Source: a virus. Taken from it: 64,000 nucleotides of DNA. The DNA lies in IMG/VR virus record IMGVR_UViG_3300023213_000527. One strand, written 5' to 3'. Under the pieces are notes generated by a model. It ran no database searches, was not told the origin of the DNA, and worked only from the letters and a program-made list of their open reading frames with translations. Positions within the stretch are counted from its first letter, which is position 1; each line of letters starts with the position of its first letter. Positions 7,367 through 39,279 of the stretch are shown one piece after another. A program made the position numbers and the translations under genes.

Positions 7367-7705
7367 TCAACTAAACGCTAGATAACCCATTACCTGATCA
7401 TGGTATTTCTGATATTCAGGAATATATTTTTGATACCATTCAATTTGCCATTTAATATCTGACCAAACCCATTTATGTTCTATATATTGCATTAACAATG
7501 CTAGATTGCCAGCCACATTGAGATTTCTTCGAGAATAAATATCAATCAGGGCGGCGCCGGCGGCGCCGTGATGTGCGGCGGTGGAGTAGGAAGTAGTGGC
7601 AGCAGCGACCTCGATAAAATCATCATCCACGATAGTGACTTCGTATCGAAACTGATCTGTTTTTGGATCAGAATCCAGATATTTCCATTCACAAGATTGA
7701 AACAT
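7367..7705 (-). CDS. Hypothetical protein, paralogue A of 37827..38165
   Basis: From ATG 7705 it has 112 aa, the same length as and collinear with 37827..38165 (MF.SCEWKYLD.DPKTDQ..., IYSRRNLNVAGNL, KYHDQVM). Confidence 0.75.
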   Translation of the reverse strand: MFQSCEWKYLDSDPKTDQFRYEVTIVDDDFIEVAAATTSYSTAAHHGAAGAALIDIYSRRNLNVAGNLALLMQYIEHKWVWSDIKWQIEWYQKYIPEYQKYHDQVMGYLAFS

Positions 7706-7754
7706 TTTTACATTTATAAATAGCAGAAGACTCTCGCTTTCAAGCAAGAATAAT

Positions 7755-17306: not shown

Positions 17307-20300
17307 TTATGGGCTCCATTTTACTGCCATCCAATCAACGCCATCTGGTGACATGATCATAAGCGCTCCGAAATTTTGTTCGATACGAGTGTTGCCAGCA
17401 AAAGCGTTAATTTTTTCTGCACCGTTAGGAGCAACCGTAATGTTGTTAGTTTCGGCACTGCCATTCTTATCCCAAACGAGAAGTAATCTTCCTGTTGTTG
17501 GAGGTGGAAGAGTGATGGTAAATGCTCCGCCACTAGAATTGCAATAAAGTAGGAGATCGGTAGTTGTTGTATCAACTGTTAACGCCGCACTAACTGATCT
17601 AGTTGTCCATCTGGTTGATCCTGTAAAAACGAGAACGCCGTTAGAAGTGCCAATCTGAACTTGACCATCTTTTGATGTTCCTGTTCCTTGTTTAAGAACG
17701 AGATTGCCGCCATTGGATGTAGTGCCGGTAGCATTTTGAGCTTGAACGGTTAATGCCTGTCCGTTAGTTGATGCTGCAGTTTGGTCAGCTTGCTTAATTG
17801 TCGGTGTAGATAATGCAGTTGGAAACTGAAGACCAGTTGAAATGGAACGCCAAATTTCAGTTCCGCCCTGCTGTGTAATGACAGTACCAGCCGCAGTCGT
17901 TCCAGTGCCAGATGTAAAGACTAAATTACCACCAGTTGAAGTAGTACCAGTAGCATTTTGAGACTGAATAGTAAATAGCTGTCCATTAGTGCTAACTGCA
18001 GTTTGATCCGCTTGTTTAATGGTCGGCGTCGAAAGACCAATTGGAAAAATATATCCGGTTGTAGTGGTTCTCCAAATTTCAGTGCCGCCTTGTTGCGTGA
18101 TAACAACACCTGCCGCTGTAGTTCCGGTGCCAGACGTAAAGACTAAATTGCCGCCAGTGGATGTAGTACCAGTTTCATTCTGGGCCTGGATGGTCGTGGT
18201 AGCACCGGTGCCGGAAGCAGTCGTCTTGTCATTTTGCTTAATCGTGATTGATGTTTTGCCCTGATCAAATGCGGCAGTTCCGGCACCAGAGTCATTGAAT
18301 GTGAAGGTTACAAGCGCTTGTACAGCACTCCCTATAGAAATGATGTCGGTGCCATTTCCAAGCGCAAATAGACCTACCTGTCCAGCGGTGGCAGTGACTC
18401 CAAGATTGGTCGCGTGTAAATATGTTGTGGTTGCGCCCCTGTATATGACGAAGCCACTTGTGCTAGTTATTGTACTATTTGCAGCAAGAGTCCATGTACT
18501 ATTCGCAGCGATTGTCCCTTGAAGAGTTGCTCCCGTCGAGAGCGTGATACTTCCATCCGTTCCTGCTCCATCCTTAGCACCTGCGCTTAACGCGAGTGTT
18601 CCACCATTACCTCCACCACCACTTTTAGCAGTTTGAGCAGTGATACTGAACGCAGCGCCGTTAGTCGCAGTAACAGCAGTATCTTGTTGGATGGTGGGAA
18701 CTATTGATTCCGCAAAACGTATTTTAGTATTATTGCCTGCAGTTCCAGTAATATCAAAAAGAATATTATCTCTACCGCTCGCAAATTCTGCATATCGGAA
18801 AGATCCGGCAGCAGCACCAGAAAATGCGGTGAAAGATCCGCCCGCACCAGAACGAGCGTTAATGGTAACAGTAAATCCATTATAGTTAGCTGACCATCCG
18901 GAAGTAGCGTTAGTATCACCAAAAGTTAGGACACCATTAGTTTGATTGATGATGATGGCATCACCCGATGCTTGATTACGACCAGTCCAAAGATTTTGAT
19001 TAGCGTAGGTTTTAGTGCGAATGATACCGGTCGCCGGAAAGGTGCCGCTACCTGAATCAAGACGGAAGCTAGGATCTGCGCCAACAAAGCGAAATGCTTC
19101 GTTGCCCAGCCGATCACGCATGAGCGTTGATTCGCCATCAATTTGCGTTTGTCCGCCAGCAGTATTTTGCGATATACGTGCGACACCAGCTGAACCCTGA
19201 GATGTAATGAAGATATTACCAGTGCTCGTGACAGCAAGATTGTTCTGCGCAAAAAGATTGACGTTGAGACCCGTAGTTGATGTGTTACCAAATGTTAATG
19301 TAGTAGCGGCGGTGGTGATAAAGTCCCCTACATTGTTAGTCCCAGTAGAGGTAAATTTATTGCCCACTGGAAATGTAACGTTATTGGATAAAGTAATAAC
19401 GCCTGCAGCAGTTGTCCCAGTTCCGGCAGTTAGAACAACATTACCTCCAGTTGAGGTAGTTCCAGTAGCATTTTGAGCTTGAATGGTTAAATTTTGTCCA
19501 TTCGTAGAAGCACCAGTTTGATCTGCTTGCTTGATCGTCGGGTTAGAAGTTGCAATAGTCCATTGAAAAGTTGCAGGAGTAATAACAATAGGAGAAGTGC
19601 CGGAAATTGCACTAACAATAGAGGCAGCAGTAGTTCCAGTAACGTCACCAGCTAGCGTTTGAGACGCTTGATTGCCAATAGGCAAAACTCCAGTAACAAA
19701 ATTAGCTCCACCCGCCAAATTCACAGGAGCATAAGTGAGAGAAGAAGCGCCATTAACTTGTAAAACATTGCCAGTAGTTAAACTTCCAGAAGCAGGAACC
19801 GAAGCGCCATTGATATTGACAACAGTAATTTTACCTGCCGTCACAGCGCTTCCAGTAGCATCGCCAGACAGAGCTGTTGCTGCCCAGTTAGAAGTGCTAG
19901 TAGCTATTAAAAATTTTCCGATGGTCAAGGCGCCAGCAGTTACTGTATTGCCTTGGATGGCAGCGACAGTAGGATTAGGATAAGTTCCAGAAAGATCTCC
20001 ACTTGCAGCGCCGCCGGCAGTAACATTGGTTCCTACCGTTAAGCTAGTTGGTTCCCAATCGACATTGCCAGCATTCCAAAGCAGAACTTGATTATTGGTT
20101 GGGGCTGCGGAAGAAACCGTTCGACTTTGGATTTTGACGACAGTGGCATTAGCAGTAGTTCCAGAAAGATCCCCACCTAGTAATTGTGAAGCTTGATTAC
20201 TTGCTGGTAGTGCTCCAGTAACAAAATTGGAGCCGCCTGCCAAATTAAGTGAGGCACCTTGCCATTGTATTCCTGTCCAAGATAAAGTGTTGCCAATGTT

Positions 20301-20660
20301 AGGAATTCCGACAGCCACTGGACGATTTTGGATTTTATTGACGGTATTACTATTGGCTGGTCCAGAAACATCGCCAATTAAAGTTGCGCTTCCACTAGTG
20401 ATGGGAAACGGCTCCCACATCTGATCGCCTAATCTCCAAGTCAAAACATAGCCGTCTGCACCTGGAAAGGCAGAAGATACTTTAAGTCCTTGAAGTCCGG
20501 AAACAGTAGGATTAGGGTAAAATCCAGAAAGGTCACCGCCCGCTGCAGTACCGCTAAAAGAAGGTCCAGGAGGTCCAGAAGGACCAACAATTTGAACGTC
20601 GGAATCGATGACATATTTGGTGCCATCCCAACGAATATATCCCTTCGGCAAAATACTCAT
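17307..20660 (-). CDS. Long repetitive tail fibre protein
   Basis: 1117 aa, Thr/Gly/Ala-rich; repeated GDLSG.YPNPTV and TIKQ.D.T...NGQ..T.Q.QNATGTTS.GGN modules; short GPSGPPGP. Confidence 0.75.
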   Translation of the reverse strand: MSILPKGYIRWDGTKYVIDSDVQIVGPSGPPGPSFSGTAAGGDLSGFYPNPTVSGLQGLKVSSAFPGADGYVLTWRLGDQMWEPFPITSGSATLIGDVSGPANSNTVNKIQNRPVAVGIPNIGNTLSWTGIQWQGASLNLAGGSNFVTGALPASNQASQLLGGDLSGTTANATVVKIQSRTVSSAAPTNNQVLLWNAGNVDWEPTSLTVGTNVTAGGAASGDLSGTYPNPTVAAIQGNTVTAGALTIGKFLIATSTSNWAATALSGDATGSAVTAGKITVVNINGASVPASGSLTTGNVLQVNGASSLTYAPVNLAGGANFVTGVLPIGNQASQTLAGDVTGTTAASIVSAISGTSPIVITPATFQWTIATSNPTIKQADQTGASTNGQNLTIQAQNATGTTSTGGNVVLTAGTGTTAAGVITLSNNVTFPVGNKFTSTGTNNVGDFITTAATTLTFGNTSTTGLNVNLFAQNNLAVTSTGNIFITSQGSAGVARISQNTAGGQTQIDGESTLMRDRLGNEAFRFVGADPSFRLDSGSGTFPATGIIRTKTYANQNLWTGRNQASGDAIIINQTNGVLTFGDTNATSGWSANYNGFTVTINARSGAGGSFTAFSGAAAGSFRYAEFASGRDNILFDITGTAGNNTKIRFAESIVPTIQQDTAVTATNGAAFSITAQTAKSGGGGNGGTLALSAGAKDGAGTDGSITLSTGATLQGTIAANSTWTLAANSTITSTSGFVIYRGATTTYLHATNLGVTATAGQVGLFALGNGTDIISIGSAVQALVTFTFNDSGAGTAAFDQGKTSITIKQNDKTTASGTGATTTIQAQNETGTTSTGGNLVFTSGTGTTAAGVVITQQGGTEIWRTTTTGYIFPIGLSTPTIKQADQTAVSTNGQLFTIQSQNATGTTSTGGNLVFTSGTGTTAAGTVITQQGGTEIWRSISTGLQFPTALSTPTIKQADQTAASTNGQALTVQAQNATGTTSNGGNLVLKQGTGTSKDGQVQIGTSNGVLVFTGSTRWTTRSVSAALTVDTTTTDLLLYCNSSGGAFTITLPPPTTGRLLLVWDKNGSAETNNITVAPNGAEKINAFAGNTRIEQNFGALMIMSPDGVDWMAVKWSP
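17680..19560 (-). repeat. Four imperfect copies of a fibre repeat module inside the tail fibre
   Basis: TIKQ(A/N)D..T...QAQN(A/E)TGTTS(T/N)GGN(L/V)V at about 17.7, 17.9, 18.2 and 19.45 kb; the 17.9 and 18.15 kb copies are also similar at DNA level. Confidence 0.75.
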
Positions 20661-20692: not shown

Positions 20693-21517
20693 TCAGATTT
20701 TTAGCAGGTGCTCAACTTTTAGGCGTTTTCTGGGAAGATAAATAGTTGCATTATTATATAGAAAATTAGCTATTCGACCAATTTGATTATTACCGCTCCA
20801 CCGTAATCTAAATGCTTTGCTGTGTTTGAATTGTTCAGGCATTTTGGTGGGATTAATATCACACTTTTGAACCAAGACTTTTTTCAAATCTTTGAGAAAC
20901 GAATAAGTGCCGATTACGCTGAATTCGTTGCTTTTATCACCAAAATAAAAACAACCATCGCCATCCACATATCCCCGGATGAAATGACGGACAAATTTGT
21001 GCTCGATTATTTTTTGAGGGAATTTATAGGTAAAAGTTTTGTTTGGTGTAATGTTGAAATTTTTAGAAGCGTCCGCAATTAATTTTTTGGAACAATAAAT
21101 GTTGATCGACGATGATTGAATAGATTTTCCTGAAACTGCATCATGAGTTTCGTAATCACCAATCGGGCCAGTAAATGCCATGGCGGTCTTCATTGTAATC
21201 AAATGTTCTCTGTCATTCCTACTAATTTGAAGACGTAAAGCGCTGGTATTGGATCTATCATCATGAATTATATTTCCATCTGCCGCTACAAAACCAGCGA
21301 GGTAAAATCCAATTTCACTATCTCTACTGAAAATATCTTCATTGACAGTGTAGATTGATTTGCCGCCAGAACTATCAACTACGATGCCTAACTGTTTAGA
21401 CCAATATTTTGTACGCGCTAAGCTTATGTCATATTTACTGGCAATTTTCGACAAACTGCCCAATTCATTATAATCACGTTGCAGCGACTCTTTGCTGGGA
21501 AATGGACATTTATTCAC
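20693..21517 (-). CDS. Free-standing double-motif LAGLIDADG homing endonuclease with N-terminal HTH
   Basis: FYLAGFVAADG and HFIRGYVDGDG, C-terminal YL.RK; own RBS AGGA before GTG. Confidence 0.88.
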   Translation of the reverse strand: MNKCPFPSKESLQRDYNELGSLSKIASKYDISLARTKYWSKQLGIVVDSSGGKSIYTVNEDIFSRDSEIGFYLAGFVAADGNIIHDDRSNTSALRLQISRNDREHLITMKTAMAFTGPIGDYETHDAVSGKSIQSSSINIYCSKKLIADASKNFNITPNKTFTYKFPQKIIEHKFVRHFIRGYVDGDGCFYFGDKSNEFSVIGTYSFLKDLKKVLVQKCDINPTKMPEQFKHSKAFRLRWSGNNQIGRIANFLYNNATIYLPRKRLKVEHLLKI

Positions 21518-21534
21518 ATTTTTGTCCTAATTAT

Positions 21535-21808
21535 AGCAGAAAACTCTCGTCTTTAAACGAGAGATGAATACGTCTGTTTGAAGAGATATTAGAAAAATAA
21601 TTCAAAACCATGCATATTGTGAGATATATTATACGTGATGTCAAAAGCCTGTGAAAGTGACGAAAACCAAGTCATTGTAGCGGGAATAAAAGCATTATTT
21701 GTCTGGTTACGGAATATAGTCGGACATTAAACAAAAACGCGGTGAGGCGCTAGTATTAACTAGGTCAATGAAACGCGAAGCTTTTGTTTTCGAGCAATAG
21801 CAATTCAC
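21535..21808 (+). mobile_element. Non-autonomous IS200/IS605 (tnpB-derived) miniature element 1
   Basis: TTAT target 5'; left-end hairpin CTCTCGT-cttta-AACGAGAG then ATGAAT; decayed TnpB C-terminus LSGYGI*SDIKQKRGEALVLTRSMKREAF; right-end hairpin then GCAATTCAC; removal restores the CAT codon of the kinase. Confidence 0.75.
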
Positions 21809-21841
21809 GTTTAGTTTCTTCTGATATTTGATGGTTAAACA

Positions 21842-21884
21842 CTTCGGTTTAATAAGAATTAATCAAATTCTTATTAAACCGAAG
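21842..21884. repeat. Perfect 19-bp inverted repeat with 5-nt loop
   Basis: CTTCGGTTTAATAAGAATT-aatca-AATTCTTATTAAACCGAAG. Confidence 0.9.
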
Positions 21885-22017
21885 AACGTCTTTTGTAGTT
21901 CTTTTTCGGAGAGAACTTGACGAGCCACTTCTGTAATCATTGGCAACTTATAATGTTCAGAAACGCAACGTGCGAGGGTCGATTTACCCGAACCGTGACA
22001 GCCCGAAAAATATACTC

Positions 22018-22194
22018 TCATTTTTGGATTTCTGTGATTAGGTTTTTGAATTCTTCCTCTGTTATTTCACAGGAATTACAAATCGTTTTCAAAGAATTTT
22101 CATGATCTCGAGCAGTAATAGCGATGATGATTTTACCGGGCGCATTAGATTTGTAACATTCAATGCTAGAATTATCTTCAAAAGTAATTTTCAT
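22018..22194 (-). CDS. Small hypothetical protein (58 aa, below the ORF-track cutoff)
   Basis: MKITFEDNSSIECYK...LITEIQK*; ATGA overlaps with both neighbours. Confidence 0.65.
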   Translation of the reverse strand: MKITFEDNSSIECYKSNAPGKIIIAITARDHENSLKTICNSCEITEEEFKNLITEIQK

Positions 22195-22400
22195 CTGATA
22201 GTTCTCAAACTAGCAACAATATCAAGTGTAGTTGATCTTGAATCTTCCAGAGGCGCGCCTTCTTTCAAGACGACAGCCTCTAGAACAGATTCGGTGGCAT
22301 TGGCAACCTGTTGATTAAGGAGATTTAAAGCTTCCTGAAAAGTTTCATGAACAATTGCTAACTCATCGGTTTTTGTTTTGAACAAACTAATGTAACTCAT
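22191..22400 (-). CDS. Hypothetical protein
   Basis: 69-aa ORF coupled to map. Confidence 0.65.
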   Translation of the reverse strand: MSYISLFKTKTDELAIVHETFQEALNLLNQQVANATESVLEAVVLKEGAPLEDSRSTTLDIVASLRTIR

Positions 22401-23200
22401 AAATTATTCCTATCAGTAATGATCTCAACATGATCTTCATGGACAAATATTGTATGTTCGAAATGTGCGCTGGCGGATGCCTCACACCATACAGTCCATC
22501 CATCTTGATCTACCCAAGTTTTTGTACTGCCATCTGTTAGCATAGGTTCAATCGCGATAGTTAATCCCGGCATAATTCTAATTCCTTCATCTACATCAGC
22601 TTTATTGGCGACAAATGGAAAAGCATGAGGAATTTCCCACTCAAGTCCGTGGCCGCCATAAGTTTGAATAATATTGAAACCTCGACCTTTAACGCACTGA
22701 GAAATCGCTTTTCCAATCACCCCCAATTGGTCTCCAACTTTGACAGCTTCGATTCCTTTCATCAAAGCTTCCTCAGTAGCAGCAATCAGTTTGAGATGTC
22801 GTGCATCTTTAGCTTTTCCATAGATACAAGTGATTGCGGTATCAGCAATAGCTCCTTCGTAAGTGGCTCCCAAATCAAAAGAAACCGTGTCACCATCCTG
22901 AAGAACATAATTTGAAGCAATGCCATGAACCAATTGTTGGTTGATAGAAATACAGGACGAATTGGGAAATCCCCGGTATCCCAAAAAGGTTGGCTTGCAA
23001 CCATTCGCAACAATAAATTCTTCAGCTATCTTGTCCAATTCTAGTAATGATTTGGTTGTTTTCTTTTGAACCAGTTCTTGTAGCAAAAGTAAAGTTTTAG
23101 CAGCTACTTTTCCAGCGATTCTTTGTTTATCTAACCAATCTTTTCCTTTTAATTTGATAAGATTGCTTGCTGCTAAAGATCCATCATTGTGCATTCGCAT
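22397..23200 (-). CDS. map: Methionine aminopeptidase type I
   Basis: CISINQQLVHGI, DTVSFDLG, IADTAIT, GGHGL, PH, AIEPML, SAHFEHTI: the metal ligands D, D, H, E, E are present. Confidence 0.93.
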   Translation of the reverse strand: MRMHNDGSLAASNLIKLKGKDWLDKQRIAGKVAAKTLLLLQELVQKKTTKSLLELDKIAEEFIVANGCKPTFLGYRGFPNSSCISINQQLVHGIASNYVLQDGDTVSFDLGATYEGAIADTAITCIYGKAKDARHLKLIAATEEALMKGIEAVKVGDQLGVIGKAISQCVKGRGFNIIQTYGGHGLEWEIPHAFPFVANKADVDEGIRIMPGLTIAIEPMLTDGSTKTWVDQDGWTVWCEASASAHFEHTIFVHEDHVEIITDRNNL

Positions 23201-23205
23201 AGTTT

Positions 23206-23451
23206 TTACTTTTTGAGATTTGATTTGATGTTAGTGATCCGTCTAATTTCTTGGACAGCTTCTTGAACATTCTGATATCCAACATATTTCTTAAATTCTG
23301 CTTCTTTTAGGATGGTAACAATTTTTTTATCGACTAGGATTAGGCTTTCATTCATGTAGCGAGTTGTTTCTTTATCCAAAGTAAAACTATTGGTAGCCAA
23401 GACAATATAATTCCTGACAGCAATCAAATCAACTACTTCTTTCAAATCCAT
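23206..23451 (-). CDS. Hypothetical protein
   Basis: Likely start MDLKEVV at 23451, right after the stop of the gene remnant. Confidence 0.65.
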   Translation of the reverse strand: MDLKEVVDLIAVRNYIVLATNSFTLDKETTRYMNESLILVDKKIVTILKEAEFKKYVGYQNVQEAVQEIRRITNIKSNLKK

Positions 23452-23453
23452 GA

Positions 23454-23898
23454 TCAATTTTCCTTTGTTTGAGTGTAGCACTCGATAATTTCACGATATC
23501 TTAGCAAGGAAGCCCATGATTTTAATCGTGGGATGAATTGCTTTTTTCTTTCTTTTTCTTAAAAACTTCAAGAACGGTGGTTATATATCTTTTGCTACCC
23601 AAATGTAACAGAAAGAGGTAAAAGATGAGTTGAAAAGTTATTATCCTACGTTTAGCGGATCGAGACCTTAAAGGCACTTCTTCGATTATTTATAATTGAA
23701 TAAGCAAACGGTTTTTTTTACAGGTCGCTATTAGAAACGCCAAACTTTATTAAGGGCTGCTGTCAATCAGCCTATTGTTGCCATTAAAAAATAACCTCTT
23801 GCTTATAGTAGGATGAGCGACAAGCCAAAGACTTTAGTCATTGGTAATTGACCAGTATCTTCTTTGATAGAATCACTAGTGGAAAGATTATATTTCAT
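23454..23898 (-). pseudogene. 3' remnant of a second allele of gene 24040..24294, split by a tnpB miniature element
   Basis: 23898..23853 encodes MKYNLSTSDSIKEDT-G and 23494..23454 continues GEIIECYTQTKEN*, against MKYNLSANDSIKEDTGEIVRGDTQIEK in the intact gene. Confidence 0.75.
23495..23852 (+). mobile_element. Non-autonomous IS200/IS605 (tnpB-derived) miniature element 3, a different family from elements 1 and 2
   Basis: TCAC target 5'; left-end hairpin GCCCATGAT-ttta-ATCGTGGG then ATGAAT; decayed LKSY-YPT; TnpB C-terminal RAAVNQPIVA and QAKDFSHW*; right end CAAGCC...GACTTTAGTC...GGTAATTGAC; excision restores the Gly codon. Confidence 0.75.
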
Positions 23899-24060
23899 GT
23901 GAATTACCATTGCCTTAAGGCAAAAGCTTCGCGTTTCATTGAACTAGTTAATACTAGCGCCTCACCGCGTTGACGAAATTTGAAGGCTTTTGCATCAGAT
24001 ATAATATATCTTACAATATGCATAGTTTTTGTAATGAGATTATTTTTCTGATATCTTTTC
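23899..24060 (-). mobile_element. Left-end-less tnpB miniature element 2 (same family as 21535..21808)
   Basis: Shares GAA.AGATAT.AGAAAAATAA...ATGCATATTGT.AGATATATTATA and ACGCGGTGAGGCGCTAGTATTAACTAG.TCAATGAAACGCGAAGCTTTTG with element 1; reads KAFKFR fused to QRGEALVLTSSMKREAFAL; ends TTGCC-ttaa-GGCAA-tgGTAATTCAC. Confidence 0.75.
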
Positions 24061-24294
24061 GATTTGAGTATCGCCCCTGACAATTTCGCCGGTATCTTCT
24101 TTGATGGAATCATTGGCGGAAAGATTATACTTCATGTAAAGCTGCAAAATTAAGTTTTTATGAGCGAGTTCTGCATTTTCATTTGCTACTATAGCTGCAA
24201 TCCTGCGTTGCTTGGCAAGCTCCAATGTTAAACGTTCTGTCTCTTCAATTTTTGTTACTAATTCTTTTTTTTCCTCAGTCATATTCGTCTCCAT
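24040..24294 (-). CDS. Hypothetical coiled-coil protein (intact allele targeted by the adjacent would-be guides)
   Basis: 84 aa; tandem paralogue of 24296..24565 (IEET.RL.LE..KQ.R...NE.AELA.K...LQLY.KY.L). Confidence 0.75.
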   Translation of the reverse strand: METNMTEEKKELVTKIEETERLTLELAKQRRIAAIVANENAELAHKNLILQLYMKYNLSANDSIKEDTGEIVRGDTQIEKISEK

Positions 24295-24295
24295 T

Positions 24296-24565
24296 TTATT
24301 TGTTTAGAGGCACTTTAGCGCCACCTTTAATAATACTTCCGTCTTCATTAAGAGCATCTTCACTTGTTAATGAATATTTAACATATAACTGCAATACAAC
24401 ATATTTGTAGGCTAATTCGGCAGCCTCATTTTGAGCTAATGCTTTTTCGGCATTTGCCAAAGCAGTTAATCTTTTTTGTTTGGATATTTCCAATAGTAAC
24501 CGATCTGTTTCTTCAATTTTTAATGAAAGCGCGCTCGATGTTATTTCTTTGGTTTCTTCGTTCAT
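24296..24565 (-). CDS. Hypothetical coiled-coil protein, tandem paralogue of 24040..24294
   Basis: Shared motifs as above; likely start MNEETK after AGGAG. Confidence 0.75.
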   Translation of the reverse strand: MNEETKEITSSALSLKIEETDRLLLEISKQKRLTALANAEKALAQNEAAELAYKYVVLQLYVKYSLTSEDALNEDGSIIKGGAKVPLNK

Positions 24566-24610
24566 AAAAATCTCCTGAATTGCCATATATCATGCCAAGC
24601 AGTTATTTAA

Positions 24611-24619
24611 ATTATATCA
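24611..24619 (-). promoter_or_regulatory. Extended -10 promoter (TGnTATAAT)
   Basis: TGATATAAT on the minus strand; a second TGATATAT at 24585-24592. Confidence 0.55.
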
Positions 24620-25927
24620 CAAAATATTTGAGGCTTCCGTTGCTAAACGGCTTCTTTCGCCGCGAACAAAGGTAATATGTCCGGCTAATTCTGAATGTTT
24701 AAACTTCTCAATCGCATAAACCAAACCATTAGAAGAAGCATCCAATGCATTGCGATCAATTTGATCGATGTCTCCATTAAGAATAATCTTGGTGCCCTCC
24801 CCAGCCCGAGTTAGCAGCGTTTTAATTTCTTCTCTTGTTAAATTTTGTGCTTCATCTATTAGAATAATAGCGTTGGAAATGCTGCGTCCTCGAACGTATG
24901 GCATGGCTGCCAATTCGATCCTTCCTTTACGTTGGAACATATCAAAATCCCTTTTCCAATCCGCTCCTGTTTTGTTGTTAAATAAAATTTCAAAGTTGTC
25001 CATAATGGCTTGGTAGTATGGTGAAAGCTTTTCTTCGATCGAGCCCGGAAGATAACCAATCTCATTTCCAACCGATTGAATAGGACGATAAATCACCAAT
25101 TTCTCATATTCTTTGCGACCGATTACCAACTCTAATGCTGCCGCCAAAACACAAATTGTTTTGCCGCCACCCGCACGCCCCACTACCGTCACAAGATCAA
25201 CATCTCTATCCATAATCAAATCAATAGCAAATGTTTGTTCTTTATTGCGACTAGCCAGTCCCCAAGGGTATGATTTTTTGATCAATCGTAATTTATTGTC
25301 AGCAATTCTTCTCCCCATGGCAATTCCATCACCATCATCGTTTTCGAACAGAACACATTCATTAGGAAACAAATCAAGTCCGTGAGTCTTAGGATCAATG
25401 AACCCATGTTGTTGTAATTCTAATCCAGTAGTTTCATTTCTGACTACCTGAATGCCGGAATACAATTCACTCAAAGAAGATCTTTTTTCCTCATGAGTGA
25501 TGGAAATTATTCCTCGAGCTTTAGCTTTAACTCGAAGATTAATGTCATTGCTTACTAAAGTAACATCGTGTTCTGGATGTTTCGCCCAGTGATTATGGGC
25601 GCAAATTAAAATTTGGGTATCTCCATAGTGTGAATTGCCAAATCCGGTATGAGCAATATTGTTTGGATCGTAATAAGTAGCATCCACTTTAACAACAATA
25701 TCATCTAATACTACACCAATACTAATATCGCCCAAATCACTGATTTCATCTAATAATCGAATACAAACTCGTGCGTTTCTTCCAACTTCGCCCGGTTCTT
25801 TTTTGAGATTATCAAGTTCGTTTAAAACGGCAACTGGAATAATTACTTCGCTGTTAGGAAATTGATGATAAGCGGTTGGGTCAAAAATTAGAGCGCTGGT
25901 ATCCAGAACGTATTTTTTGGGAGTCAT
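24617..25927 (-). CDS. phoH: PhoH-family protein with N-terminal PIN domain (PhoH2/YlaK-like)
   Basis: YVLDTS...PIN residues, VSNDINLRVKA, GRAGGGKT, YVRGRS, IDEAQNL, GDIDQID, RSRLA. Confidence 0.92.
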   Translation of the reverse strand: MTPKKYVLDTSALIFDPTAYHQFPNSEVIIPVAVLNELDNLKKEPGEVGRNARVCIRLLDEISDLGDISIGVVLDDIVVKVDATYYDPNNIAHTGFGNSHYGDTQILICAHNHWAKHPEHDVTLVSNDINLRVKAKARGIISITHEEKRSSLSELYSGIQVVRNETTGLELQQHGFIDPKTHGLDLFPNECVLFENDDGDGIAMGRRIADNKLRLIKKSYPWGLASRNKEQTFAIDLIMDRDVDLVTVVGRAGGGKTICVLAAALELVIGRKEYEKLVIYRPIQSVGNEIGYLPGSIEEKLSPYYQAIMDNFEILFNNKTGADWKRDFDMFQRKGRIELAAMPYVRGRSISNAIILIDEAQNLTREEIKTLLTRAGEGTKIILNGDIDQIDRNALDASSNGLVYAIEKFKHSELAGHITFVRGERSRLATEASNIL

Positions 25928-26298
25928 GGCTCGATCTTGTTTTCTGCTTCCTCAAATAATGACCATATTTCACAAGTCATCTCCAAAAATAATTGCTTTT
26001 TGGGATCGAGTTGAGATAAATCTTTTTTGAGAACGTAATATGGCTTATTCCAAGAGCCAACTTTTTGTCCATCTACATAGATGTCCATAGTCTCTTTGTC
26101 GTCGATTACTTGAATGCCATAAGCGGAAAAGATCTTTCGGAGTTGCATTCTCTGTTCGATGGTAAGTGAACCTCCCGTTTCCCAAAAATCAATGGGAACG
26201 CCCATCTGTTCCAACAGGGAGTGTAGGAATCTTTGTTTTTCCTCTTCCTCAACCTGCCGAGTGTTCTCGTTGTGGTTTAAAAGGATAATTCCTTTCAT
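25924..26298 (-). CDS. Hypothetical protein
   Basis: 124-aa ORF coupled to phoH. Confidence 0.7.
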   Translation of the reverse strand: MKGIILLNHNENTRQVEEEEKQRFLHSLLEQMGVPIDFWETGGSLTIEQRMQLRKIFSAYGIQVIDDKETMDIYVDGQKVGSWNKPYYVLKKDLSQLDPKKQLFLEMTCEIWSLFEEAENKIEP

Positions 26299-37827: not shown

Positions 37828-38165
37828 TATATAAACACCAGATAGTCCATTACTTGATCATGGTATTTTGGATACTCAGGAACATATTTTAAGTGTAGCT
37901 CAGTTTGCAATTTAATATCTGGAGATAACCATTTATTTTCTATATATTGCATCAGTAAAATTAGATTGCCAGCCACATTGAGGTTTCTTCGAGAATAAAT
38001 ACCGATCAGGACGATGGCGGCGGTGTCGGAGGCGGCGCCGGCATCCATGGATACGGCAGCGACGCCAGCTTCAGTAAAATCATCATCCATAATAGTAATT
38101 TCCCATCGATACTGATCTGTTTTTGGATCATGATCCAGATATTTCCATTCACAGGATCGAAACAT
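37827..38165 (-). CDS. Hypothetical protein, paralogue B of 7367..7705
   Basis: Collinear, gap-free DNA and protein similarity to 7367..7705. Confidence 0.75.
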   Translation of the reverse strand: MFRSCEWKYLDHDPKTDQYRWEITIMDDDFTEAGVAAVSMDAGAASDTAAIVLIGIYSRRNLNVAGNLILLMQYIENKWLSPDIKLQTELHLKYVPEYPKYHDQVMDYLVFI

Positions 38166-39279
38166 TTTTCAATTTTTCTTTTTCAACCTCTTGTTTTTTT
38201 GCTTCTTTGACTAATTTTTCGAATTGACCTTCCCATATTGTGATTAAGTTGTAACCTGCCGCTCTGATTAAATTTTCACGTTCAATAGTTCGTGCATAGA
38301 GTTCGCCAAAGGTTGCACCTGCAATTTCATTCATGTCATTAGGGTTAAACTTTAATGGGTTCCCATGCCAATAATCTCCGTGAAATTCATAAACAGTATT
38401 GGTTTTGGGATCGTAGCCATCTACTCGTTTCCTTCCCAGTCCTGGCAACGAAATATTACGCCTATTAAGAGCAATGCCTAAACTATCTAACCATTTAATT
38501 TCTGGCGAAGAGATGATATGGATACACTTGGGACACCCTTGTCCATTAAGGTGTGAAGCAGGGGTTTGTTGAAATTCGCCGTGGTCTGGACATATAATTG
38601 TTGTTTTAGTTTTGCCATTTACATAAATAGCAAGACTATAATCGTAGAAACCATCGTGAATCAAATCAGCCTGGGCAATGAAATGTTTTATTCCCCTGTT
38701 ATGATTGGGCGCACATGTCGGGCAACCTTGCCCAGCGAGATGGCTGTTTGGTGCTTGCTCGAATTGTCCATGTTCTGGGCATACAATAATCACCTTGGTG
38801 TAGTTATTTACGTAGCGAGCTAACAAATAATTATATTTGTTATTATGTATGATGGCGGCACGCTCACTAAAAAGCGAAATGGAACTCTTCTTTACATCTT
38901 TGCCACATTCATTACATCCATGTCCTTGCAGATGATGCTCGGGAGTTTGCCAAAACGAACCATGAAATGAACAAACGATCTCTACTTTTTGAACACTCGA
39001 AATATATTTTGTGCACGAGTAATTGTATTGATTACCATGAACACCTGTTGCTCGTTCGACGAACTCTTCTGTTGTTGATCTAACACTACCACCACACTTT
39101 GCACAACCTTTACCCATTAAATGACTGTTTGGGATTTGCTCAAAAATACCATGGATAGGACATATAATTTTCACCTTAATGTTATTTTTGATATAATGCA
39201 CCAAACGGTAATCATATCGATTTACATGAATGATTTTAGCCTTGGATGTAAATTCAGTTGTATTGGATGGGCGTGGCAC
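38149..39279 (-). CDS. Putative homing endonuclease: four C-P-x-HG...H..G.GC..C repeats plus C-terminal PD-(D/E)xK/Vsr-like domain
   Basis: ICPIHG..GCAKC repeated four times; RVDGYD..TNTVYEFHGDYWHG. Confidence 0.8.
   Translation of the reverse strand: MPRPSNTTEFTSKAKIIHVNRYDYRLVHYIKNNIKVKIICPIHGIFEQIPNSHLMGKGCAKCGGSVRSTTEEFVERATGVHGNQYNYSCTKYISSVQKVEIVCSFHGSFWQTPEHHLQGHGCNECGKDVKKSSISLFSERAAIIHNNKYNYLLARYVNNYTKVIIVCPEHGQFEQAPNSHLAGQGCPTCAPNHNRGIKHFIAQADLIHDGFYDYSLAIYVNGKTKTTIICPDHGEFQQTPASHLNGQGCPKCIHIISSPEIKWLDSLGIALNRRNISLPGLGRKRVDGYDPKTNTVYEFHGDYWHGNPLKFNPNDMNEIAGATFGELYARTIERENLIRAAGYNLITIWEGQFEKLVKEAKKQEVEKEKLKNVSIL

Follow-up and report, generated by a model that had tools for sequence, protein, structure and literature searches.

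The 46-bp segment at 23853-23898, which lies between two transposon ends facing each other, is in all likelihood target DNA left over from a dead gene copy into which two transposons inserted independently of each other, and the locus around it a graveyard of selfish elements. It is located in a window of 64,000 nucleotides, the whole stretch of DNA analyzed here, which corresponds to bases 9797-73796 of a 118-kb IMG/VR virus record (G000; CheckV completeness, 28%). An earlier note on this DNA had favored a nuclease-less, bidirectional dual-guide cassette directed against the neighboring gene, here called X, and had offered the fossil of two RNA-guided transposons as a fallback; the fallback is essentially the reading that we support. 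The window contains very large ORFs and a PhoH/PIN gene, and its syntenic relatives are contigs of 240-360 kb; this gene content and these relatives point to a jumbo phage as the probable source. A blastn search of GenBank phages with 21000-26000 returned a weak PhoH match only, and no relative of the locus.

The spacer matches positions 24090-24135 of gene X at 40 of 46 nt, with mismatches at positions 6, 19, 21, 23, 30, and 45; this match had been described in the earlier note and was confirmed both by a repeat search and by blastn. It is part of a longer repeat, 23852-23903 versus 24089-24140 (87% identity over 52 nt), for which blastn against the whole record gave an E value of 9e-13 and no other match. 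The same 46 bp would be read as a guide on the plus strand for element 3 and on the minus strand for element 2. Because the genome is AT-rich and the segment short, one might suspect a chance match or low-complexity similarity, but this explanation is refuted, and we give it practically no weight, in view of the E value and identity of the longer repeat, the in-frame similarity that goes on past element 3 for another 9 codons, and the finding that, in 118 kb, neither 16-nt guide has a near match other than the X sites.

When element 3 is removed and the minus strand is read, positions 23898-23853 continue in frame into 23494-23454 and give MKYNLSTSDSIKEDTGEIIECYTQTKEN followed by a stop. The former segment supplies codons 54 to 69 (part) of a dead gene copy, here called Y, and the latter its 3' remnant, with the last 13 codons and a TGA stop. 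The joined remnant thus comprises the C-terminal 28 residues with their own stop at 23454, shortly before the start of the next gene (23451), and is homologous to residues 54-77 of X. Since the spacer is in frame across element 3 and the frame has its own stop, we conclude that the 46 bp are the surviving middle of Y, split by element 3 at the TAM. The spacer resembles X because Y is the sister copy of X. Gene X (24040-24294, minus strand) encodes an 84-aa, coiled-coil-like protein, and from codon 54 it reads MKYNLSANDSIKEDTGEIVRGDTQ... The segment of X that matches the spacer (24090-24135, minus strand) is preceded by TCGC on the plus strand (24086-24089) and by TTAC on the minus strand (24139-24136); these motifs, and the guide/target pairs, are as they had been quoted.

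The sequence that spans the last ~6 codons of X, its stop (24040-24060), and the bases as far as the tnpB start remnant finds its match in the interior of element 1 and in that of the full-length family-1 elements carried by a second phage contig (G001). Judging from this alignment, X is a chimera whose tail and stop codon are transposon-derived. In tblastn, the similarity of X also extended through residues 23-53 into element 2; this extension was driven by 16 shared codons, and the remainder was taken as chance. Gene Z (24296-24586, minus strand; 96 aa), 1 nt from X, is an older paralogue of X and Y. In seven related jumbo-phage contigs (L027-L033) the gene order is PhoH, one small gene, an 81-aa gene, and an M24 peptidase gene, and the single small gene is 50-68% identical to Z and 38-50% identical to X. 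Judging from position and similarity, Z is the orthologue of that gene. Because the relatives have one gene at this position and it is closest to Z, X and Y are regarded as younger, lineage-specific extra copies. PHROGs and Pfam searches with X, Z, and the 81-aa gene assigned no function, and a pattern search of viral contigs and metagenome contigs found neither an uninterrupted (empty-site) allele of Y or X nor any relative of the 46 bp. In three of the related contigs the PhoH gene is itself interrupted by a ~1.1-1.2 kb insertion (L028 489-2996; L032 and L033 9-1817); the PhoH halves overlap slightly in L028, and the insert may be an intron or intein, or else some other mobile element.

Element 3 (23495-23852, plus strand) is a 358-bp miniature without an ORF, related to a 1.2-kb tnpB element found elsewhere in the same virus record (L001 1395-2616, minus strand; G000:C1:99701-100922). 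Its first 52 nt and last 107 nt are 96% and 88% identical, respectively, to this parent. The miniature consists of a 52-nt left end with a hairpin, an interior of ~195 nt with a conserved TATATA box, and a 107-nt right end (23746-23852, plus strand), an omegaRNA-like scaffold homologous to the tnpB 3' end, which ends in TGA and then C, with the guide directly after it. The parent carries a single 379-aa ORF with OrfB_IS605 and Cas12f1-like TNB domains, the stop codon of which is 1 nt from the right end of the element. When compared with solved Cas12f/TnpB structures, this TnpB retains the RuvC motifs GVDLG, IAIED, and NADLNAA and the CxxC zinc ribbon. Three further full-length copies of the whole miniature, 89-92% identical, are present in G001, a phage contig of 327 kb; in total, family 3 comprises one miniature and one parent in G000, and three miniatures, a parent, and a fragment in G001. 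Six copies share their termini (GAT at the start, TTGAC at the right end), and their left flanks, otherwise unrelated, read TCAC in five copies and TTAC in one. Element 3 itself sits directly after TCAC (23491-23494), and no target-site duplication was left, as Y is in frame once the element is removed. TCAC is the published TAM of AmaTnpB (PMC10278001), so that the earlier statement that it is a reported TnpB TAM was borne out. RNAalifold predicted three helices with 30 pairs in the last 100 nt of family 3, and in the terminal hairpin two compensatory pairs distinguish the miniatures from the parent. The interior of element 3 (window 23547-23745, ~195 nt) is ~90% conserved in all four copies, shows no detectable similarity to the parent tnpB element, and holds a conserved GGTTATATATC box that resembles the box ahead of the tnpB start codon. 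Global alignment of this interior with the parent gave noise only.

Elements 1 and 2 belong to another family (family 1), of which five copies are found in G000 and four in G001. Element 1 (21526-21808, plus strand) is a complete miniature of 283 bp, with ends set where the homology between copies stops; its parts are a hairpin at the left end, a TATA-rich box with a tnpB start remnant, and an omegaRNA-like right end of ~165 nt. The family-1 parents are two full-length elements of G001 (L017, L013) with a 397-aa TnpB (HTH_OrfB, OrfB_IS605, and TNB domains), to which element 1 corresponds in its left end, tnpB start, and right end (85-91%). The copy alignments and the two distinct parents (379 aa and 397 aa) thus confirmed what had been proposed about elements 3 and 2, namely right ends at 23852 and 23899, convergent orientation, and origin from two tnpB families. 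A TATA-rich box stands ahead of the tnpB start in both parents and is retained in all miniatures of both families. A scan of 23300-24400 for sigma-70 promoters and terminators gave sites not above those in shuffled sequences, none of them oriented to drive either RNA. Public sequencing runs were sought for 22900-24700 and 23450-24300, and none was listed.

Element 2 (23899-24060, minus strand), which was aligned with eight other copies, is a decayed copy of 162 bp. Its left-end hairpin is gone, and an internal deletion has brought the start region of tnpB up against the right end, of which the last 77 nt, terminating at 23899, are left; all family-1 copies terminate in TTCAC or TTCAT. It is a shortened inverted copy of element 1, with inverted repeats of 73 nt (21736-21808 / 23899-23971) and 42 nt (21604-21645 / 23988-24029). 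A scaffold of about 73 nt had been ascribed to element 2; this is the length of the exact inverted-repeat arm, and 77 nt of right-end scaffold are actually kept. Across nine copies, the family-1 RNA has four predicted helices with 30 pairs, five of which show compensatory double changes. Element 2 keeps helices 2-4, three of the four, in its last 77 nt; it has lost helix 1 and ~90 nt of upstream sequence conserved in all other copies, and it carries one pair-breaking change. It is probably dead. An Rfam search gave no match at the gathering score in the window and none at E values up to 5 in 21400-24200; neither RNA matches a curated family. The left flank, readable in seven family-1 copies, is TTAT in five, TTGT in one, and CTAT in one. 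The copy with TTGT is element 1, to which TTAT had been attributed in the earlier note, and the left flank of element 2, which would have held the upstream TAM of Y, is deleted.

Both families therefore occur in G000 and in G001. When G001 was compared with this locus, only mobile elements matched; there was no backbone similarity and no PhoH homologue. The family-3 tnpB element, by contrast with the backbone, is 93% identical between G000 and G001 (L010) over exactly its own length. Because the elements are ~90% identical while G001 shares no backbone with G000, we conclude that they move between unrelated jumbo phages. No family-1 tnpB and no Y1 transposase gene were found in the 118-kb record (28% complete); both were found in G001 only. 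There, a complete tnpA (Y1 transposase, 139 aa) adjoins a 367-aa tnpB (G001:C1:44501-45786; L015, L034), and this tnpA may serve the G001 miniatures as an autonomous source of transposase.

The cassette reading holds that a selected, bidirectional pair of guides cuts or represses sensitive X alleles in co-infecting relatives, and that the resident X was synonymously recoded to immunity. Part of the description behind it stood: the two right ends are of TnpB type and face each other, their conserved structure is omegaRNA-like, with conserved RNA helices in both and a TATA-rich box upstream, and neither element carries a nuclease gene. For element 3, a cognate TnpB whose catalytic motifs are intact is encoded in the same genome; for element 2, no TnpB of its family was found in the 118-kb record, which is incomplete. 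What was not supported is the selection of a cassette, since the 46 bp are leftover coding sequence of Y and the guides are flanking DNA by construction. Transcription of the omegaRNA in IS200/IS605 elements runs out past the right end, so that the DNA flanking the insertion serves as the guide (PMC8612924; PMC10055086). Because of this, two insertions on opposite strands 46 bp apart share guide DNA automatically, and an in-frame gene remnant continuous across element 3 needs no special origin. Further, element 2 is short of about half of the conserved RNA, no convergent pair was seen among the other copies of either family in G000 or G001, and the sensitive allele was not found in viral or metagenome collections.

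The proposed recoding of X at both TAMs and seeds can be examined in the 77 alignable nucleotides of X and Y, of which 16 differ (positions 6, 19, 21, 23, 30, 45, 48, 55, 58, 59, 61, 64, 66, and 74-76). X is mismatched with guide 3 at guide position 2 and has TCGC for TCAC, and it is mismatched with guide 2 at position 6 and has TTAC for TTAT, so that both sites differ from the inferred TAMs, as they would in an immune allele. With these changed TAMs and seed mismatches, X would probably escape cutting by either guide. In the first 50 nt (the 46 bp and the TAM) four of the seven differences are synonymous, a proportion that also is as expected for any once-functional pair of paralogues. The earlier note had itself named divergence spread evenly between the alleles as speaking for chance, and no excess at TAMs or seeds was found (P 0.4-0.95): the 16 TAM or 6-nt-seed positions hold 3 differences against 2.2-2.9 expected (permutation P 0.40 and 0.60), and with 12-nt seeds the P values are 0.88-0.95. 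The chance of at least one TAM or seed difference in both systems is 0.62. A single TAM change, it may be argued in favor of recoding, needs no statistical clustering. Nevertheless, the differences between X and Y are not concentrated at TAM or seed, as far as 77 nt can show, and the changed sites of X are compatible with immunity but give no evidence of selection. Taken with the decay of element 2, this leaves the selected cassette highly improbable.

We infer the following order of events for the favored history, two insertions into a dead copy. Two non-autonomous elements of the IS200/IS605 type, from different TnpB families, would have inserted into the extra copy Y independently, on opposite strands and 46 bp apart: element 3 precisely 3' of TCAC, and element 2 upstream of Y codon 54, presumably 3' of a TTAT-like motif. 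Later, a single illegitimate join would have linked X, near codon 78, with internal sequence of element 2, through either a ~250-bp deletion in the X-Y tandem or recombination with a diverged allele. This join would have taken away the first 53 codons of Y together with the left end of element 2, and X would have gained its transposon-derived tail and stop. Deletion and recombination are equally economical, with one junction each.

The second source of the join leads to a different account, in which Y never existed as a separate copy. Both elements would have inserted into one gene, X0, which would then have been restored by illegitimate recombination into the left end of element 2, so that X codons 1-78 represent an incoming, diverged, and uncuttable allele and the 46 bp the old one; TnpB cutting would select such a resistant incomer. 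One illegitimate junction suffices here too, the junction does lie inside element 2, and the tail of X is transposon-derived. Co-infection and exchange do occur, to judge from IS families that have moved from one jumbo phage to another, unrelated one (93% identity of the tnpB element, although G001 is without PhoH). Against these points, the divergence of ~18% in nucleotides over codons 54-77 is high for alleles, tandem paralogy is already present, with Z and X 1 nt apart, which makes a third tandem copy unremarkable, and TAM and seed show no statistical sign of selection. We consider this account possible, though on balance doubtful, and retain the insertion of both elements into a separate copy Y as the preferred history.

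Two insertions within 46 bp call for comment. Under uniform placement of the record's seven elements, the chance of any pair within 46 bp is ~0.02, a rough and post hoc estimate. Because such a pair is improbable if placement is uniform, a local cause must be assumed, for example a hot region or the freedom of a dead gene to take up insertions. Within 2.5 kb lie three of the seven elements, alongside a truncated P-loop kinase gene and a gene for a LAGLIDADG endonuclease. Mobile DNA seems to have accumulated in this region, and this is the likeliest cause of the two insertions lying so close together. The P-loop (AAA_28) kinase gene (window 21863-22021, minus strand) is cut to 52 aa, versus 183 aa in the syntenic relative L027. 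Beyond the cut are a hairpin with a perfect 18-bp stem (21842-21884), element 1 (21526-21808), and the LAGLIDADG endonuclease gene (20693-21517), so that mobile elements are stacked in one spot around 20693-22021.

Repeats of other kinds are also present in the window. A 1117-aa ORF (17307-20660, minus strand) contains 222-nt tandem and dispersed repeats (window 17677-20546), and a 16-mer within them, at window 18677, is 2 mismatches from the guide of element 3. A pair of paralogues aligned without gaps (window 7372-7715 and 37832-38175), 30,460 nt apart, is 82-87% identical in three blocks (repeat families D4, D5, and D8).

Several features place the elements among known systems. Their ends are homologous to those of a tnpB element, they are inserted 3' of a conserved motif, and their dispersed copies have unrelated flanks, as found for non-autonomous IS200/IS605 elements; the scaffold overlaps the tnpB 3' end, ends at the right end, and has a conserved predicted secondary structure, as found for omegaRNAs. 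ORF-less PATE-like elements of the IS200/IS605 group encode omegaRNAs and need TnpB in trans (Meers et al., 2023; PMC10055086). The elements described here resemble them in having the left and right ends of a tnpB element, subterminal hairpins, no ORF, and several dispersed copies, in being inserted 3' of a fixed tetranucleotide without duplication, and in a right end that forms a guide-RNA scaffold predicted to need TnpB in trans. Unlike the PATE-like elements, they reside in jumbo-phage genomes and are common to unrelated phages, element 3 has an interior of ~195 nt unmatched in the parent, and two families stand head-to-head at one locus.

Both parents are single-gene tnpB elements in the manner of the IS1341-type TnpB-only elements such as those of ISDra2 TnpB and AmaTnpB (PMC8612924; PMC10278001), with a scaffold that overlaps the 3' end of the ORF and a guide that begins right after the right end, and family 3 shares the TAM TCAC with AmaTnpB (PMC10278001). 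In contrast to the IS1341-type elements, the copies at this locus are without a nuclease gene, their RNAs have no curated Rfam match, and they are known here from sequence alone. Transposon homing into co-infecting phages is a category of its own in a 2026 review (PMC13565253). The role that element 3 could plausibly play together with the resident TnpB is similar to such transposon (non-restorative) homing and to the marker exclusion by homing endonucleases, in that an uninterrupted allele in a co-infecting genome would be cut and the element copied in by recombination; unlike in those systems (PMC13565253), the target gene copy here is already dead and truncated, and no empty-site allele was found.

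If a co-infecting genome carried an uninterrupted allele of the Y type (TCAC plus guide), the element 3 RNA and the resident TnpB, supplied in trans, could plausibly still cut it and so drive the homing of the miniature. Homing is a known selfish function of TnpB. A stronger version, in which the element 3 RNA is expressed from its own TATA-rich box, is loaded by the resident TnpB, and serves as a phage-borne gene drive or competition weapon against Y-type alleles in co-infecting relatives, while the phage's own X escapes through TCGC and the seed mismatch, seems to us unlikely.

The locus as it stands is instructive but ordinary. Because the guide of a TnpB is the flank of the insertion, an insertion into any gene with a paralogue mimics a guide aimed at the neighbor, and scans for such guides should expect this artefact. 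Jumbo-phage genomes harbor active-looking TnpB elements together with RNA-only miniatures of them, the same element families are found at ~90% identity in phages without a common backbone, and a phage gene, X, appears to have taken its stop codon from a transposon. If the gene-drive reading were true, the presence of both IS families in unrelated jumbo phages would be the footprint of homing during co-infection; and if the resident TnpB does use the RNA of the miniature in trans during co-infection, this would be a natural case of RNA-guided homing between viruses.
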